A DNA stretch of 64,000 bases from an uncultured Candidatus Saccharibacteria bacterium (GTDB lineage Bacteria > Patescibacteriota > Minisyncoccia > Minisyncoccales > Staskawiczbacteraceae). Location of the stretch: NCBI GenBank assembly GCA_964427585.1, contig CAYRVC010000001.1, forward strand, positions 34,220 through 98,219. Direction: 5' to 3'. Shown here one piece after another: positions 7,661 to 60,148 of the stretch (its first letter is position 1; each line of letters begins with the position of its first letter). Below the pieces are notes generated by a model that saw only the letters and a program-made list of their open reading frames with translations, ran no database searches and had not been told where the DNA came from. Position numbers and translations under genes: made by a program.

Positions 7661-8350
7661 ATGAAACAGGTTATAATTTTATTCGGGCCTCCGGGGGCGG
7701 GCAAAGGCACGCAGGCCGAGCTTCTGGCAGATAAACTGGGGTATTATCACTTTGAATCAAGCAAGGTTATCGAAGCCTGTTTTCAAAACGAACAGCAGGA
7801 AAAAGTTTTCAGCATAGAAGGAAACGATTACAAAGTAGGCGACGAAAAAAAAAGATGGGAGCAGGGCTTGCTCAACAGCCCTCCTTTTGTTGTTTTTTTG
7901 ATGGCTGAAAGGATAAAGGAATTGGCGGAGATGGGAAAATCAATTATTTTTTCCGGTTCCCCCAGAACGGTTTACGAGGCCGAAAGGGAAATTCCTCTTT
8001 TAAAAGAGCTTTACGGTCTGGAGAATATAAATTTTCTTTTTTTAGAAATTTCTCCTAAAACCACTATTTTTAGGAACTCTAACAGGAGGATATGCGAGCT
8101 TATCCGTCATTCTATTTTGTTTACTCCAGAAACGGAAAAATTAACCTTTTGTCCTTTAGACGGGTCAAAACTGGTAAGGAGAAAGGGTTTAGATGAACTG
8201 GCGACAATTAAAAAACGCTTGGAAATTTTCAAAGAGCAAACGTTTCCCGTTTTAGAGACAGTCAAAAGAGCGGAGATAGAAATTAAAAAAGTGAACGGCG
8301 AACAGTGGGTGGCGGATGTTTTTCAGGATGTTCTCGGAGCGCTTAAATAA
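7661..8350 (+). CDS. adk: Adenylate kinase
   Basis: P-loop ILFGPPGAGKGTQAELLA, followed by a lid-like segment. It follows secY. Confidence 0.85.
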   Translation: MKQVIILFGPPGAGKGTQAELLADKLGYYHFESSKVIEACFQNEQQEKVFSIEGNDYKVGDEKKRWEQGLLNSPPFVVFLMAERIKELAEMGKSIIFSGSPRTVYEAEREIPLLKELYGLENINFLFLEISPKTTIFRNSNRRICELIRHSILFTPETEKLTFCPLDGSKLVRRKGLDELATIKKRLEIFKEQTFPVLETVKRAEIEIKKVNGEQWVADVFQDVLGALK

Positions 8351-9102: not shown

Positions 9103-9170
9103 TTGCAATGTACTATTATACCAGCACACGGAGTTTTAGTTTTGACAATTTTGCCGGAATGAAAGGAGAT

Positions 9171-9425
9171 ATGATGTGTTCAAAACCGAAAAAATCTAAA
9201 TCAAAATCAACCCGGATGCGCCAGGAAAAAAAAGAGCAGCAAGTTCGAAATGATATGAAAATTAGCTTGCAACGCTCAGAGGAGAATGAACAATTAGAAC
9301 AAGCGATAAATATCGGATACGGATTTGCTGATCCAAATGACGACCATGATTCAGACTATGAAGGTGATGATTGGCGAAGTCCATATCGTTCTGATTCTGA
9401 TATTGACGAAGAAGACGAACAATAA
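9171..9425 (+). CDS. Orphan small protein with a basic N-terminus and a hyper-acidic C-terminus
   Basis: AGGAG sits ahead of the ATG pair at 9171/9174. Sequence runs MMCSKPKKSKSKSTRMRQ...DDHDSDYEGDDWRSPYRSDSDIDEEDEQ. The ORF track extends it to 9108. Confidence 0.45.
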   Translation: MMCSKPKKSKSKSTRMRQEKKEQQVRNDMKISLQRSEENEQLEQAINIGYGFADPNDDHDSDYEGDDWRSPYRSDSDIDEEDEQ

Positions 9426-9495: not shown

Positions 9496-9519
9496 TTAAT
9501 GCGCAACTTAATGCGCAAC
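9496..9519. repeat. Tandem direct repeat, 2 x TTAATGCGCAAC (plus a degenerate AAGGCGCAAAG)
   Basis: Two exact adjacent 12-mers read directly, located upstream of the PaaX-like gene. Confidence 0.8.
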
Positions 9520-9529
9520 CAAAGGCGCA

Positions 9530-9567
9530 AAGTGAGGTTTTTTCACTCGAGTGAAAAAACCTCACTT
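9530..9567. repeat. 38-nt perfect palindrome, copy 1 of the TTTTTTCACTCGAGTGAAAAAA family
   Basis: AAGTGAGGTTTTTTCACTCGAGTGAAAAAACCTCACTT is its own reverse complement. Confidence 0.95.
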
Positions 9568-9616
9568 TAATCGTCATTTTTATGTTATAATAAAAATAAG
9601 CATAAGAAAATAAAAA

Positions 9617-10159
9617 ATGAAAGACTCGGTGATAAAACAAATATTATTGCATTTATATGATTGTATAGATTATGGTTTCAGTTACAGGGTGAAAAAAGGT
9701 CTTTTTATTGATAGTTTATTTCCCGGCGGCTGGAAAAAATTTAGCAAAGAAGAAATAAAAGAAGGCATTAAATATTTAAAAACAACTAATTTTATTACAA
9801 GAAAAGAAGGGTATGATGGTTCGGTGATTATTTCATTAACCGAAAAAGGCAAACTTCGAGCGCTTAATATAAGATTCAAAAGATTAAATTATAAAAAAGA
9901 GCCTTGGGATAAAAAATGGCGAATGGTTGCATTTGATATTCCAAACACGCATAGAAAGGGAAGGGATGCTGTGAGGTATCGCTTGCGCACCGCAGGATTT
10001 TATGAATTGCAGGAAAGTATACTTATATATCCTTATGATTGCGAGAGTGAAATTAGAGATTTTATAACGCTGTTTAAACTCGAAAAATACGTCCGTTTTG
10101 CATTATTGGATTTTATTGATGGAGAGGATTATCTTGTAAAATTATTCAAGCTGGTTTAG
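9617..10159 (+). CDS. PaaX-like / Cas2-fold putative transcriptional regulator
   Basis: The N-terminal half is wHTH-like. WRMVAFDIPNTHRKGRDAVRYRLRTAGFYELQESILIYPYD matches the PaaX-type middle-domain pattern. The gene is visibly AT-rich. Confidence 0.55.
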   Translation: MKDSVIKQILLHLYDCIDYGFSYRVKKGLFIDSLFPGGWKKFSKEEIKEGIKYLKTTNFITRKEGYDGSVIISLTEKGKLRALNIRFKRLNYKKEPWDKKWRMVAFDIPNTHRKGRDAVRYRLRTAGFYELQESILIYPYDCESEIRDFITLFKLEKYVRFALLDFIDGEDYLVKLFKLV

Positions 10160-10193
10160 GTATGTTTTTTCACTCGAGTGAAAAAATATACCT
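10158..10193. repeat. 36-nt palindrome (1 mismatch), copy 2 of the TTTTTTCACTCGAGTGAAAAAA family
   Basis: AGGTATGTTTTTTCACTCGAGTGAAAAAATATACCT. It overlaps the TAG stop of the preceding gene. Confidence 0.95.
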
Positions 10194-10256
10194 ATTGCAC
10201 ATTTATTTTTGTGGTAGAATAAAATAAGAATATTTTTAAATTTAAATCTAAATTTT

Positions 10257-11012
10257 ATGAAAAATTTGATTGCGGGGAATTGGAAGATGAATCCGGAAAC
10301 CGAAAAAGAAGCTAAGGCTCTTTTTTTAAAAATTAAAAAAGGAATAAAAAATATAAAGAATGCCGAGGTGGTTTTGTGTCCGCCGTTTTTGTATTTGCCC
10401 GTGTTGGCCAATATTCAGCCTGGCAAGATTTTTTTAGGTTCGCAGAATTGCTTCTGGGAAGAAAAAGGCGCTTTTACCGGCGAAATTTCAGCCTTAATGT
10501 TGAAGGATTTTAAGGTAAAGTACATTATTTTGGGGCATTCTGAGCGCCGGAAATATTTTAATGAAACAAACGAGCTAATTAATAAAAAAATAAAAAAAGC
10601 ATTGGATGAGGGCCTTAAAGTTATTTTTTGCGCAGGCGAGACGGCTGAGGAGAAAAGTAGCGGAAAAAAATTAGATGCTTTAGGCCGTCAGCTTAGGGAA
10701 GGGTTAAAAAATATTCCAAAAAACAAAATAAATGGCATAAGCATTGCCTATGAACCCGTCTGGTCGATTGGAACAGGGAATAATTGTTCCGTTGAAGAAA
10801 CGATGACTTCTGTTTTATCCATAAGAAAAATAATCGCGGATTTATACGGCAGGAAATCAGCTACCGGAATGAGGATTCTTTACGGCGGAAGCGTAAACAG
10901 CAAGAATGCAGGCCACTATATAAAGGAATCTAAGGCCAACGGCCTGTTGGCAGGAGGAGCTTCAACGAACGCGGAGGAGTTTATAAAAATTGTAAAATCT
11001 TCAGAACCTTGA
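10257..11012 (+). CDS. tpiA: Triosephosphate isomerase
   Basis: IAGNWKMN, ILGHSERR, AYEPVWSIGTG, YGGSV. Confidence 0.93.
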   Translation: MKNLIAGNWKMNPETEKEAKALFLKIKKGIKNIKNAEVVLCPPFLYLPVLANIQPGKIFLGSQNCFWEEKGAFTGEISALMLKDFKVKYIILGHSERRKYFNETNELINKKIKKALDEGLKVIFCAGETAEEKSSGKKLDALGRQLREGLKNIPKNKINGISIAYEPVWSIGTGNNCSVEETMTSVLSIRKIIADLYGRKSATGMRILYGGSVNSKNAGHYIKESKANGLLAGGASTNAEEFIKIVKSSEP

Positions 11013-11169
11013 GTTACGAAATGCCTTACGAATTATTTTATTTTGGATTGCGGGCGAGACTTTGCAAAAATTTTGAGGCATATACGGAGTATTCTGCCTC
11101 AAAATTTTTACAAAGGCGCAGCCCAAGCCAAAATATAAATAATTTAAGCGCATTTTGTAACTCAAGGTT
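11005..11169 (+). repeat. Family-A nested-hairpin element (MITE-like), copy 1, about 165 nt
   Basis: Near-identical to 44273-44434. Terminal inverted repeats are AACCTTGAGTTACGAAATGCC and their complement. The central hairpin is AAAATTTTGAGGCA/TGCCTCAAAATTTT. Confidence 0.9.
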
Positions 11170-11249
11170 CATAATAAAAAGTCGTTGGATGTATCTCAAA
11201 ATATATTCGCTGATTGACATAAGGGATATTTTTTAATAGCATAAGTAAT

Positions 11250-25014: not shown

Positions 25015-25040
25015 GGTTTTTTCACTCGAGTGAAAAAACC
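25015..25040. repeat. 26-nt perfect palindrome, copy 3 of the TTTTTTCACTCGAGTGAAAAAA family
   Basis: GGTTTTTTCACTCGAGTGAAAAAACC is identical to the inner 26 nt of copy 1. Confidence 0.95.
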
Positions 25041-25069
25041 GCGCCAATATTAAAAATTAAAAATATAAT

Positions 25070-31023: not shown

Positions 31024-32277
31024 ATGCTTCAATCAAAATTATTCTATAAAACAGCGAAAGAAAAGTCGGCCGATACCGAATCTATTTCACATGAATTGCT
31101 GACCCGCGCCGGGTTTGTTGACCAGCTTATGGCCGGGGTTTACACATTTTTGCCGCTGGGTTTTATGGTTTTGAAAAAAATTGAAAATATAATAAGAAAA
31201 AATATGGAAAACGCGGGCGGACAGGAAGTTTTAATGCCGGTTTTACAGCCGAAAGAAAACTGGCAGAAAACAGGCAGGTGGGAAACCCTGGACATACTTT
31301 TTAAAATAAAAGCCAGCGGCGAAAAAGAATATGCCTTAGGGCCTACCCACGAAGAAGTTATTTCTCCTCTGGCAAAGAAAATTATTTTTTCATATAAGGA
31401 CCTGCCTTTTTATCTTTTCCAGATACAGACAAAATTCAGAAACGAGCCAAGGGCGAAATCCGGCATTCTAAGGACGCGGGAATTTTTAATGAAAGACCTT
31501 TATTCTTTTCACGCAGACCAGGGAGATTTGGATAAATACTATGAAAAGATGCTAAAAGTTTATTTCAATATTTTTAAAGAATGCGGCATTTACAAAGGAG
31601 GAAAAAATCCGCATACTTACAGAACGCTGGCTTCCGGAGGAAGTTTTTCAAAATATTCAGACGAGTTTCAAACAATTACTGAAGCTGGAGAAGACATAAT
31701 TTATATCTGTAAAAAATGCCAGACTGCCGTCAATAAGGAAATTATAAGCGAAAATAAAAATTGCCCCAATTGCAAATCCGCAGATTTTGAAGAAAAAAAG
31801 GCGATTGAGGTGGGGAATATTTTTAAACTGGGAACAAAATATTCTTTGCCCTTTGATTTAAAATTCAGGGATAAGGACGGATCGGAAAAACCGGTTTTAA
31901 TGGGCTGTTACGGAATAGGGATTTCAAGGCTGATGGGCGCCGTTGCGGAGGCAAGTCACGACAACAAAGGAATAATCTGGCCTAAAAATATTGCTCCATT
32001 TTCAGCGCATTTGATTCTCGTGGAAAACAGCCGAAAGGTAAAACAGGCGGCTGATAAGATATACGACAATTTTCAAAAACAAAAAATTGAAATATTATAT
32101 GACGACAGGCAGGGAAAGTCGGTTGGAGAAAAATTTGCGGTTTCGGACTTGATTGGAATTCCGCATAGGATAGTGGTGTCTGAAAAAACACTGGCAAAAA
32201 ATTCGGTCGAAGTAAAGGAAAGGACAAAAAACCAGGCAAAATTAGTTAAGATAAAAGAATTAATAAAATTATTCTAA
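31024..32277 (+). CDS. proS: Proline--tRNA ligase, short form without an INS editing domain
   Basis: HELLTRAGFVDQLMAGVYTFLPLG, FRNEPRAKSGILRTREFLMKDLYSFH, GCYGIGISRL. A CxxC..CxxC insert lies between motifs 2 and 3. Confidence 0.9.
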   Translation: MLQSKLFYKTAKEKSADTESISHELLTRAGFVDQLMAGVYTFLPLGFMVLKKIENIIRKNMENAGGQEVLMPVLQPKENWQKTGRWETLDILFKIKASGEKEYALGPTHEEVISPLAKKIIFSYKDLPFYLFQIQTKFRNEPRAKSGILRTREFLMKDLYSFHADQGDLDKYYEKMLKVYFNIFKECGIYKGGKNPHTYRTLASGGSFSKYSDEFQTITEAGEDIIYICKKCQTAVNKEIISENKNCPNCKSADFEEKKAIEVGNIFKLGTKYSLPFDLKFRDKDGSEKPVLMGCYGIGISRLMGAVAEASHDNKGIIWPKNIAPFSAHLILVENSRKVKQAADKIYDNFQKQKIEILYDDRQGKSVGEKFAVSDLIGIPHRIVVSEKTLAKNSVEVKERTKNQAKLVKIKELIKLF

Positions 32278-32284
32278 TTAACCT

Positions 32285-32412
32285 AATTATTCTAATTGTT
32301 CTAATCAATGTCTAATTTCTAATGACTAATTCAAAAACCCGTTTCAGACATTAGACATTTTATCATTTAGATTTGATTAGAATAATTAGAGTAATTAGAA
32401 TAATTAGACATT
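32285..32412 (+). repeat. Family-B long-hairpin element (MITE-like), copy 1
   Basis: Highly similar to 38525-38661. The left arm is made of TTCTAAT-type units and the right arm of ATTAGA-type units, which are mutually complementary. Confidence 0.9.
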
Positions 32413-36360: not shown

Positions 36361-36431
36361 GCGGGTATGGTTCAATGGCAGAACATATCCTTCCCAAGGA
36401 TATGATACGGGTTCGATTCCCGTTGCCCGCT
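36361..36431 (+). tRNA. tRNA-Gly (anticodon CCC)
   Basis: Manual cloverleaf: acceptor GCGGGTA/TGCCCGC, anticodon loop TTCCCAA, T-arm ACGGG-TTCGATT-CCCGT. No encoded CCA. Confidence 0.9.
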
Positions 36432-36457
36432 CAAAAATTTGCGCGCAAATTTTTGAG
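36430..36457. repeat. 28-nt perfect loop-less palindrome centred on GCGCGC
   Basis: CTCAAAAATTTGCGCGCAAATTTTTGAG overlaps the tRNA-Gly 3' end. Confidence 0.9.
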
Positions 36458-36496
36458 CGAGGCTCGCCCGCCCCGAGGTATTATTATTTTAAGTTG

Positions 36497-36568: not shown

Positions 36569-36579
36569 ATTGTGCGACA

Positions 36580-36625
36580 ATAGCGGTCAAAAATCTCACG
36601 ATCGTGAGATTTTTGACCGCTATTA
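36580..36625. terminator. 46-nt perfect palindrome centred on CGATCG, likely terminator of the tRNA pair
   Basis: AATAGCGGTCAAAAATCTCACGATCGTGAGATTTTTGACCGCTATT followed by ATTTCTTCTTTTT. Confidence 0.65.
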
Positions 36626-36704
36626 TTTCTTCTTTTTCTAATATTTGCGATGCTAATGCGGTTCATTGCCAGCAGGCTTAACCCCTTTTTTATTTATTGA
36701 AAAT

Positions 36705-37836: not shown

Positions 37837-38516
37837 TGATAAAATTCGATAAAGTAACAAAAGTTTACCCCCCCGACAGCCTTGTGCTGGAAGATATTTC
37901 TTTTGAAATAAAAGAAGGGGAGTTTGTATCTATAGTGGGAAAATCCGGAGCCGGAAAAACAACCTTAACCCGCCTGCTTTTAGGGCTGGAAGAGCCGACC
38001 TCCGGCCGTGTGTATTTTGAAGGCGTAAATGTCCATGAAGCCAGCCCGCCCGAACTCCAGGCTATCAGGAGAAAAATAGGGGTGATCTACCAGGATTATA
38101 AGCTCCTTCCGGCAAAAACAGTTTATGAAAATGTCGCCTATATAATGGAAGTTGAAGGCAAGGAAAGCAGTGATATTTCAGGATATGTCAATAACATTTT
38201 AGACATAATCGGATTAAGCGGAAAAATGAATAATTTTCCAAAAGAGCTTTCCGGCGGGGAACAGCAGAGGCTGGCCATTGCCAGGGCGCTGGTTAAAAAT
38301 CCCTTGGTGATTGTGGCCGACGAGCCTACCGGCAACCTTGATCCTTACAACACATATGAAACCATTTCCCTTTTAGAGAAAATGAACAAAGCCGGAAAAA
38401 CAGTAATGCTTCTGACCCATGACAGGGAAGTGGTGAATAAGCTTGGCAAAAGGGTCATTACTTTAGATAGCGGAAGAATCGTAAGGGACGAAGATGAAGG
38501 AAGATTTATAATATAA
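37836..38516 (+). CDS. ftsE: Cell division ATP-binding protein FtsE
   Basis: Walker [13 protein letters not shown] signature LSGGEQQR, Walker [18 protein letters not shown] overlap with prfB. Confidence 0.9.
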
Positions 38517-38524
38517 ATTATTCG

Positions 38525-38661
38525 AATTATTCTAATTGTTCTAATTATTCTAATAAATGCCTAATTTCTAATGCCTAATTCAAAAATGGTTTTTAGACAT
38601 TAGACATTTTGTCATTGGGATTTGATTAGAATAATTAAAATAATTAGGTTAATTAGACATT
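38525..38661 (+). repeat. Family-B long-hairpin element, copy 2
   Basis: Aligns to 32285-32412 with one extra TATTCTAAT unit and a few substitutions. Confidence 0.9.
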
Positions 38662-44272: not shown

Positions 44273-44434
44273 AACCTTGAGTTACGAAATGCCTTACGAA
44301 TTATTTTATTTTGGCTTGCGGGCGAGCCGAAGTAAAAATTTTGAGGCATATACGGAGTATTCTGCCTCAAAATTTTTACAAAAGCGTAGCCCAAGCCAAA
44401 ATTAAAGAATTTAAGGCATTTCGTAATTCAAGGT
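44273..44434 (+). repeat. Family-A nested-hairpin element, copy 2, about 162 nt
   Basis: Same orientation and near-identical to 11005-11169. It ends 8 nt before the ftsZ ATG. Confidence 0.9.
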
Positions 44435-59581: not shown

Positions 59582-59607
59582 ACACCTGTGCACCGGTGCA
59601 CAGGTGT
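59582..59607. promoter_or_regulatory. 26-nt perfect palindrome (two GTGCAC units), candidate operator of the YerC-like gene
   Basis: ACACCTGTGCACCGGTGCACAGGTGT lies 14 nt upstream of the ATG at 59621. Confidence 0.5.
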
Positions 59608-59620
59608 ATGGGTATAAAAT

Positions 59621-60148
59621 ATGACTACGTTTCATCTTAACAATCTTCCAAAAGAAAAAAGAATTCAGATGATAGGCGAATTCTATGATATGATTGATTC
59701 ATTGAATAACCGAAATGAGGTCCGTCTATTTATTAAGAGCTTATTAACCGCTGATGAGATTGCTAATTTGATGAGACGAATAGAGGTGGCTGTGCTTTTG
59801 TCGGGAAATTATAAATATAACGATATTAAAAAAATATTGGGCGTGGGAAATGAAAAAATTTCTAGCGTCCATAAGTGCCTACTGCAGGATGATAGCGGCT
59901 ATAAAATTATTGTTAAAAGATTAATTGGAAATCGCAAGAAAAGATTAAAAAGAATAAAGAAAATAGAAAAAGAAATGGCAAGCGATTCTCCGTTAAAAAG
60001 AATTAAAAAATTACCCTCGGCTAGAGTTTTACCCAGTTTACTGGATGCGGTTATAGAAAAATTAGAAGATGATAAAGATTTGGAAAGAGAAGCATTGTTA
60101 TTTACTCCATCATCAGCGCCATTTAATAATAGAAAAAATGGAAGATAA
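59621..60148 (+). CDS. TrpR-like YerC/YecD-family DNA-binding protein with a long basic C-terminal tail
   Basis: LLTADEIANLMRRIEVAVLL..GNYKYNDIKKILGVGNEKISSV matches the YerC/YecD pattern. AT-rich. Confidence 0.6.
   Translation: MTTFHLNNLPKEKRIQMIGEFYDMIDSLNNRNEVRLFIKSLLTADEIANLMRRIEVAVLLSGNYKYNDIKKILGVGNEKISSVHKCLLQDDSGYKIIVKRLIGNRKKRLKRIKKIEKEMASDSPLKRIKKLPSARVLPSLLDAVIEKLEDDKDLEREALLFTPSSAPFNNRKNGR

Follow-up and report, generated by a model that had tools for sequence, protein, structure and literature searches.

Palindromes on both sides of a truncated PaaX-type gene as probable operators of the enclosed protein in Candidatus Staskawiczbacteria

In this study, we analyzed a window of 64,000 nucleotides from a genome of Candidatus Staskawiczbacteria, an uncultured and ultra-small bacterium, in which a gene for a PaaX-like protein of 180 amino acid residues lies between two copies of a palindrome, and a third copy is located ahead of murA. 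We consider it quite probable that the three palindromes are double-stranded DNA operators of the enclosed protein, which would be a truncated autoregulator of the PaaX type. The bracket of palindromes is conserved around homologous genes, the upstream copy has a recurrent position relative to the gene's own promoter, and residues of the protein co-vary with bases of the DNA. The co-variation identifies the palindromes as the likely cognate double-stranded sites of this protein.

The 22-mer shared by the three palindromes, TTTTTTCACTCGAGTGAAAAAA, occurred exactly three times in the window (9538–9559, 10165–10186, and 25017–25038), and no fourth site was found there with up to three mismatches. 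It was absent from 100 dinucleotide-preserving shuffles, with an expected number of 0, which upholds the view of an earlier note on this DNA that three copies exceed chance. The upstream copy (U) consists, in order, of AAAGTGAGG, TTTTTT, CACTC, GAGTG, AAAAAA, and CCTCACTTT, that is, an outer arm, a T/A tract, and an inner core on each side of the dyad. The downstream copy (D) begins on the TAG stop codon of the regulator gene (10157–10159) and has the same 22-bp center as U, with a different outer arm (GGTATG/TATACC). The solo site (S3) is identical over its 26 bp to the center of U, as the earlier note had described for its third copy (25015–25040); it is a perfect palindrome and holds the complete inner core and both tracts. 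For the other two copies, the palindrome in U and the single mismatch and stop-codon overlap in D agreed with that description, but the extents had to be corrected from 38 nt (9530–9567) to 40 nt (9529–9568) for U and from 36 nt (10158–10193) to 38 nt (10157–10194) for D. The exact duplication of TTAATGCGCAAC reported at 9496–9519 is also present, and a degenerate third unit continues it up to 9530 (period 12 and 2.9 copies in TRF). This tandem repeat sits directly 5′ of U and is not kept in the closest relative (locus L003).

Table 1 Features of the window around the regulator gene and the solo site (strand "." where none applies)
Feature	Position	Strand	Description
Tandem repeat TTAATGCGCAAC	9496–9530	.	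Two exact units (9496–9519) and a degenerate third
Upstream operator (U), candidate	9529–9568	.	Perfect 40-bp palindrome
Predicted promoter of the regulator gene (extended −10, TGTTATAAT)	9583–9591	+	Same element in homologous loci
Regulator gene	9617–10159	+	180 residues; winged helix and Cas2-like (PaaX_M) domain
Downstream operator (D), candidate	10157–10194	.	38-bp palindrome with one mismatch
Extended −10-like element TGGTAGAAT	10212–10220	+	40 nt past the D dyad, 37 nt before the tpiA start
tpiA	10257–11012	+	Co-directional downstream gene
Solo site (S3)	25015–25040	.	Perfect 26-bp palindrome
TATAAT hexamer	25064–25069	+	36 nt past the S3 dyad, without a TG extension

The regulator matched the Pfam family PaaX_M (PF20803; E = 4.2e-20, 72.1 bits with a cut-off of 24) over residues 95–164. 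Pfam showed no match to PaaX_C, the C-terminal effector domain of PaaX, and the protein stops at residue 180; nor did Pfam match its N-terminal winged-helix part. The score against TIGR02277 was 28.5 bits versus a cut-off of 264.55, and the Cas2 profiles PF09827 (13.7 versus 23.8) and TIGR01573 (16 versus 24.5) likewise stayed below their cut-offs. An AlphaFold2 (AF2) model (pLDDT 84) showed a winged helix, a linker helix, and a Cas2-like domain, the winged helix comprising a helix at residues 44–56 and a β-hairpin wing at 60–74. In Foldseek, the best match of this model was Escherichia coli PaaX (PDB 8a39). Rv0674, winged-helix proteins, and Cas2 proteins ranked next; the matches included F-93, winged helices of the MarR type, and the Cas2 structures 5g4d and 5zyf. 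A PDB sequence search with the Cas2-like half gave nothing useful, and a PDB search with the family profile returned Rv0674 alone, weakly. Residue D107, at the position of the catalytic acid of Cas2, is near-invariant in the family. Searches of Pfam, NCBIfam, PADLOC, and PHROGs yielded PaaX_M and weak Cas2 or regulator matches only; we rejected assignment to a defense or phage family, as PADLOC and PHROGs gave nothing beyond these weak matches. The closest homologues came from metagenome-assembled genomes (MAGs) of Candidatus Staskawiczbacteria and other Parcubacteria. The family comprises 1,363 clusters at 50% identity (E ≤ 1e-10) and occurs in Patescibacteria, and most of its best 150 matches listed are 170 to 240 residues long. 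A full-text literature search gave no paper joining PaaX with Cas2, and of the papers listed for PaaX in combination with Patescibacteria, Parcubacteria, or the candidate phyla radiation, none had the word PaaX in its text.

To the first four homologous loci, we added 80 more by a protein-profile scan of metagenome contigs. Under strict criteria, 65/78 loci with enough flanking sequence had the upstream palindrome and 66/78 the downstream one, and the same bracket was found around homologues of 42% and 37% identity. The palindromes were 32 to 46 bp long across approximately 80 homologous loci and had a common architecture: a variable outer arm of 6 to 10 nt, a T/A tract (TTTTT or AAATTT), a core of 8 to 10 nt, the complementary tract, and the complementary arm. 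The core is common to both palindromes of one locus and varies widely among homologues (CACTCGAGTG, GTCTCGAGAC, GCGGCCGC, CACGGCCGTG, GTCGATCGAC, GGCGTACGCC, and GCTGGAGC), even between genomes within one syntenic position. The downstream palindrome starts 0 to 30 nt past the stop codon, and the spacing between the two palindromes is 604 to 759 bp (median 646). The motif thus accompanies this regulator family across genomes, a co-occurrence that the earlier note had proposed to check. In some loci (the window, L027, and L042), the outer arm of the upstream copy is not that of the downstream copy, yet both remain perfectly self-complementary, which is not demanded by a plain duplex-binding model. 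Asymmetric central dinucleotides were flipped between the upstream and downstream copies in approximately 11 of the 16 informative loci.

The regulator gene occupies approximately eight recurrent syntenic positions across many genomes. These include map-X-tpiA, as in the window, trpS-X-rnj, and pilin genes-X-prepilin peptidase, X being the regulator gene, and several lie beside aminoacyl-tRNA synthetase genes; across all contexts, the neighbors are map, tpiA, alaS, rnj, trpS, pilin genes, and the like. The syntenic positions are stable paralogous lineages and not the traces of a hopping element. No paa (phenylacetate catabolic) genes were found near the regulator in any context examined, no cas1 was found in the neighboring gene lists, and no spaced repeat array was found in the window. 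A conserved small upstream ORF was considered and discarded: ORFs of approximately 100 residues do lie 5′ of the gene, but they split into different BLAST clusters, and the one in the window (9108–9425) had no Pfam match.

An extended −10 element (TGnTAnnnT) was found 24 to 44 nt 3′ of the upstream dyad in 49/56 distinct loci, compared with 4/56 on the mirror side; with this spacing, the upstream palindrome extends over the −35 region of the regulator's promoter. In the window, the distance from the U dyad to the −10 hexamer of the regulator gene promoter is 37.5 nt. On the downstream side, the arrangement of TGGTAGAAT relative to D matches that of U and its own promoter, and it is kept in L003 (40–42 nt past the dyad in these two loci) but not family-wide. 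We consider tpiA a probable local target of the D site. As a general role, however, an operator at the promoter of the next gene was rejected for the downstream copy: it holds for the window and L003, but in general the link was found in 5/59 loci, which is background. Separate canonical terminators lie 3′ of the downstream copy in three loci with a convergent next gene (L004, L005, and L007), and others precede the upstream copy. In 42/42 loci with a co-directional next gene, no terminator-like hairpin was found between the downstream copy and that gene.

To compare sites with proteins, we numbered the bases of each half-site from the dyad. Base 3 (G) and bases 6–8 (A) were invariant, and the variable bases of the core followed three residues of the protein. 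At bases 4–5, TG occurred with R/D at residues 113/117 (17/17), CA with K/N (17/18), AC with R/N (13/17), and CC or CG with K/D (5/5); at base 2, A occurred with N or D at residue 110 (27/27) and C with E (30/34). Residues 110, 113, and 117 are spaced i, i+3, and i+7 on the helix 110–125, the first helix of the Cas2-like domain. Mutual information with the average product correction (APC) pointed from bases 1–5 to residues 110, 113, and 117 only, and from bases 14–17 to residues 51, 52, 56, and 57 in the recognition helix of the winged helix only. The combination K52/R56/L57 was paired with CGTA at bases 13–16 regardless of the inner core, which means that the two modules are independent. In the protein of the window, the inner core would be specified by N110, R113, and D117, and the outer arm by K52, T56, and T57. 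Classical side-chain/base pairs are Asn with A, Asp or Glu with C, and Arg or Lys with G; the pairings observed at residues 110, 113, and 117 are these classical ones.

Among nearest-neighbor protein pairs, residues 113/117 differed in 29/32 pairs with different cores and in 8/30 pairs with the same core. By Fitch parsimony on a neighbor-joining tree built without the specificity columns, 19/23 core switches coincided with a switch at 113/117, with a median of 6 and a maximum of 14 for the other columns. On this sequence comparison, shared ancestry does not explain the co-variation. The pairing also held out of sample: P0024 and P0062, two NCBI MAG proteins outside the JGI set with D/K/N at residues 110/113/117, were predicted to have xAGCA half-sites, and these were present. 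P0024 lies on the same contig as P0001, the window orthologue with a GAGTG-type site, so that one genome holds two paralogues with different sites. There are several paralogues per genome, and at least approximately 20 specificity switches in the family. The autoregulatory operator, one of the readings that the earlier note had put forward, is thus the one borne out by the bracket in approximately 80 loci, the placement of the upstream copy over the −35 region, and the co-variation.

Away from the gene, the motif is scarce. In approximately 730 kb of protein-seeded loci, 121 such palindromes adjoined a homologue and 3 lay elsewhere, one of them S3; mapping the occurrences, as the earlier note had recommended, therefore places 121/124 beside the regulator gene and does not reveal scatter at all gene ends. 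Exact matches to the 18-nt center were sought in 185,579 species genomes and found at 18 loci. Approximately six of these were bare 18-mers in unrelated phyla, equal to the chance expectation, and the rest were Patescibacteria loci with extended arms, of which two bracket the gene again and approximately 10 are solo intergenic sites. Solo sites were mostly located 17 to 106 nt past a stop codon. One was found between atpA and atpG in three different genomes, one (L011) at the rnj-trpS position, where L004, L005, and L007 carry the gene itself, and the MAG H43-bin081_1 had four (in 8-kb loci around the matches). No remnants of the regulator gene were detected beside solo sites by tblastn (E ≤ 1).

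S3 is positioned between a PP2C-like ORF, whose stop codon ends 29 nt 5′ of it, and murA, 171 nt 3′ of it, and of its outer arms only the left one (GGTAAGG) resembles that of U. Its dyad and the TATAAT hexamer are spaced like those at the promoter of the regulator gene, and the hexamer is followed by a hairpin and then by murA. The hexamer is a candidate promoter of the murA operon, and S3 may be a weaker operator for this operon. A conserved site ahead of murA was not supported: no solo site was found there in L106, L062, or L050. The distal murA site of the earlier note thus stands as a site with a TATAAT at the same spacing; control of the operon is a hypothesis from one genome, as no related genome confirms the link.

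From these patterns we infer DNA binding by a dimer, repression, and roles for the downstream and solo sites as follows. The protein, which keeps the winged helix and the Cas2-like middle domain without the effector domain, would probably bind duplex DNA as a symmetric dimer that reads the site with four heads. Its pair of Cas2-like domains would sit at the dyad, where residues 110, 113, and 117 in the N-terminal part of their first helix would read bases 2, 4, and 5; the invariant A/T tract (bases 6–8 and beyond) would come next, and the two recognition helices (residues 51–57) would read bases 14–17 of the outer arms, approximately one helical turn further out. The symmetry of such a dimer, with its inner and outer heads, would explain palindromy over the whole 32 to 46 bp. 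As U covers the −35 region of an extended −10 promoter, protein bound to U should impede RNA polymerase, so that the regulator would repress its own gene as PaaX of E. coli does at Px; we take such autorepression through U as the likely mechanism. D would be a second operator that either aids repression by looping to U or acts as a roadblock to transcription into the co-directional gene, and in this genome it would also be at promoter distance from tpiA. S3 would be a rare solo operator that may place the murA operon under the same control.

This arrangement resembles known systems in part. PaaX, the phenylacetyl-CoA-responsive repressor of E. coli and Pseudomonas (PDB 8a39 and 3l09), likewise has an N-terminal winged helix followed by a Cas2-like middle domain. 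Its targets are inverted repeats, and it represses its own promoter by steric hindrance of RNA polymerase (PMC9493321); the position of the upstream palindrome over the −35 region in 49/56 loci would fit such a role here. By contrast, the regulator has 180 residues compared with approximately 305 in the PaaX chain of 8a39, lacks the C-terminal effector (phenylacetyl-CoA) domain, and is not located beside paa genes. Its candidate operator is a contiguous palindrome of 32 to 46 bp, whereas that of PaaX is TGATTC-N27-GAATCA; a second one lies past the stop codon, and base reading appears to involve the middle domain. In the Cas2 dimer, duplex DNA is held via Asn10, Arg14, and Arg16, just past strand 1 (PMC6395717). 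The putative base-reading surface, a few residues past the acidic end of strand 1, appears to be placed like these residues of E. coli Cas2, a lead from position only. Cas2, however, contacts the backbone only and has no sequence preference, whereas the putatively equivalent helix start co-varies with bases here; in addition, the cas1 and CRISPR array that go with Cas2 in the Cas1–Cas2 integrase are absent near the regulator. The looping systems of LacI (O1/O2/O3), GalR, and DeoR, with auxiliary operators beside or within the regulated gene, also have one operator at the promoter and another several hundred base pairs downstream, but here the second candidate operator of almost all homologues lies just past the stop codon of the regulator gene itself and there is no helical phasing: looping between U and D with such phasing was rejected because the Rayleigh test on the spacing was flat.

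Other readings of the palindromes are less compatible with these data. We regard it as unlikely that the sites act as extruded DNA hairpins or cruciforms, in which a structured palindrome would be recognized rather than, or besides, the linear duplex, for example in sensing supercoiling or in marking a site for processing. Every copy is a near-perfect palindrome of 32 to 46 nt, the differing outer arms of one locus are still self-complementary, single strands fold with −18, −12, and −10 kcal/mol (z-scores −8.8, −8.2, and −4.2), and the flipped central dinucleotides would fit a hairpin as well. However, palindromy over the full length would already follow from a two-fold symmetric dimer that has inner and outer heads. 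Known templated "quasi-palindrome correction" mutations could also keep the arms symmetric without selection. The base pairs of the stem are the same in the duplex and in the hairpin, so that co-variation cannot separate these two models. An RNA hairpin serving as a bidirectional terminator, a 3′-end stabilizer, or an attenuator is, in our judgment, highly improbable, although the sites lie at gene ends, the solo ones mostly shortly past a stop codon, and the predicted hairpins are stable. The T-run lies inside the 5′ arm and not after the stem, and a terminator scan omits these sites; canonical terminators occur separately, after the downstream copy and before the upstream copy, as described above. 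The upstream copy is 5′ of the promoter and so absent from the gene's mRNA. Sense-strand mismatches showed no bias between G·U and A·C (7 to 3 for the upstream copy and 8 to 9 for the downstream copy), the motif hardly occurs at other gene ends in the approximately 730 kb of loci, Rfam gave no match, and base identity follows the side chains as expected for major-groove readout of B-DNA. The shared bidirectional terminator considered in the earlier note is therefore not sustained: the motif is almost confined to the flanks of this gene, it has no trailing T-run, and separate terminators follow it.

The gene and its two palindromes could also form a selfish or mobile cassette of the REP/RAYT or IS200 kind, in which the Cas2-like domain, as a site-specific nuclease or recombinase, would cut the palindromes and spread solo copies; this appears very unlikely. 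As in REP/RAYT and IS200 elements, a small gene lies between palindrome copies, a few solo copies are scattered elsewhere between genes, and the palindrome varies by lineage with the protein. The solo copy of L011 at the position of the gene in other loci would suit such an element, as would the near-invariant D107 at the Cas2 catalytic position and the weak Cas2 profile matches. Unlike in those elements, no HUH/Y1 domain is present, and searches of Pfam, NCBIfam, PADLOC, and PHROGs gave no motif or domain of the HUH, tyrosine, or DDE kind. Solo copies are very rare (3 in approximately 730 kb) and have no gene remnants beside them, the approximately eight recurrent syntenic positions mean that the position is stable, and the fixed relation of the upstream copy to the promoter is better explained by regulation. 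The "ends of a small cassette" of the earlier note are thus apt as a description, since the sites accompany the gene, but nothing points to mobility. A related idea, which we consider quite unlikely, is that the Cas2-like domain is a sequence-specific nickase or recombinase at the center of its own palindromes; such an activity is conceivable because D107 is kept right beside the residues that would read the dyad. If this were true, the operator-gene-operator unit would be a self-regulating selfish or defense-type cassette and a living sequence-specific, ancestor-like form of Cas2. Because of the differing arms, the flipped dinucleotides, D107, and the missing effector domain, a structure-specific or enzymatic reading retains a low probability.

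A repressor flanked by its own operator is ordinary. What is unusual is the family-wide picture, in which each member has a private operator of 32 to 46 bp on both sides of its gene. The specificity switches appear to obey a simple code between residues and bases that is divided between two modules; one module is the Cas2-like domain, which had been regarded as serving dimerization. A variant of PaaX-type autoregulation with an unexpected mode of recognition would be the new element. According to a 2022 review, the structure of a PaaX–operator complex had not been elucidated (PMC9493321). If confirmed, double-stranded operators read by the enclosed protein would provide the first DNA-recognition model for the PaaX family and a Cas2 fold performing sequence-specific readout, together with natural orthogonal repressor–operator pairs for synthetic biology and a handle on gene regulation in unculturable organisms.

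Operator-type palindromes were found between atpA and atpG in three different Patescibacteria genomes, at solo sites lying away from any regulator homologue and sharing the core sequence that defines the CACTCGAGTG type. Such a site may be a conserved distal target. The L012 locus carries two neighboring palindromes, which adjoin an ORF for a putatively protease-like protein of 236 amino acids, and two paralogues of the regulator may act there on one promoter.

Coordinates of palindromes and repeats in the window and in loci from other genomes (L-numbers, with locus-internal positions)
Feature	Coordinates	Context
CACTCGAGTG-type solo sites	L013 102-129; L022 3775-3806; L025 1877-1896	between atpA and atpG
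Two adjacent palindromes, CACTCGAGTG type and GGTCTCGAGACC type	L012 2133-2168 and ~55 nt upstream	differing specificity
Two long palindromes, 36 nt and 50 nt	window 36426-36461 and 36577-36626	directly 3' of two tRNA genes
Perfect palindrome ACACCTGTGCACCGGTGCACAGGTGT, 26 nt	window 59582-59607	between PEP-synthase-like gene and 175-aa ORF (59621-60148)
Tandem repeat, 12-nt unit TTAATGCGCAAC, 2.9 copies	window 9496-9530	abuts putative upstream operator
145-nt repeat, 90% identity between copies	window 11005-11149 and 44273-44417	
147-nt repeat, 86% identity between copies	window 32266-32412 and 38515-38661	

The palindromes that follow the tRNA genes are composed of an A-tract, a core, and a T-tract enclosed by G+C-rich outer arms; this tract order mirrors that of the putative operators of the regulator, and the two palindromes are possibly tRNA terminators. 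The ACACCTGTGCACCGGTGCACAGGTGT palindrome and the adjoining ORF could form a further regulator-operator pair. The TTAATGCGCAAC tandem repeat was absent from L003, the locus of the closest relative. With arms at 11004-11050 and 11124-11170, the 145-nt repeat in turn has the form of a long, imperfect inverted repeat, suggestive of a small element that is MITE-like or structured; one copy separates tpiA from the RNaseH-like gene. The 147-nt repeat is composed of 9-mers (AATTATTCT) in inverted arrays, and one copy is located immediately ahead of a second mreB-like gene.

The bracketed regulator gene at L023 4400-4946 (Parcubacteria GW2011_GWA2_37_10) matched in two frames, so that it is a pseudogene with a frameshift unless the sequence itself is in error; both flanking palindromes were retained. 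For the regulator homologue at the map-X-tpiA position in L082 (10001-10543), flanking palindromes were not detectable; a CGCTCGAGCG-type solo site is present 2.2 kb upstream, at 7799-7822.
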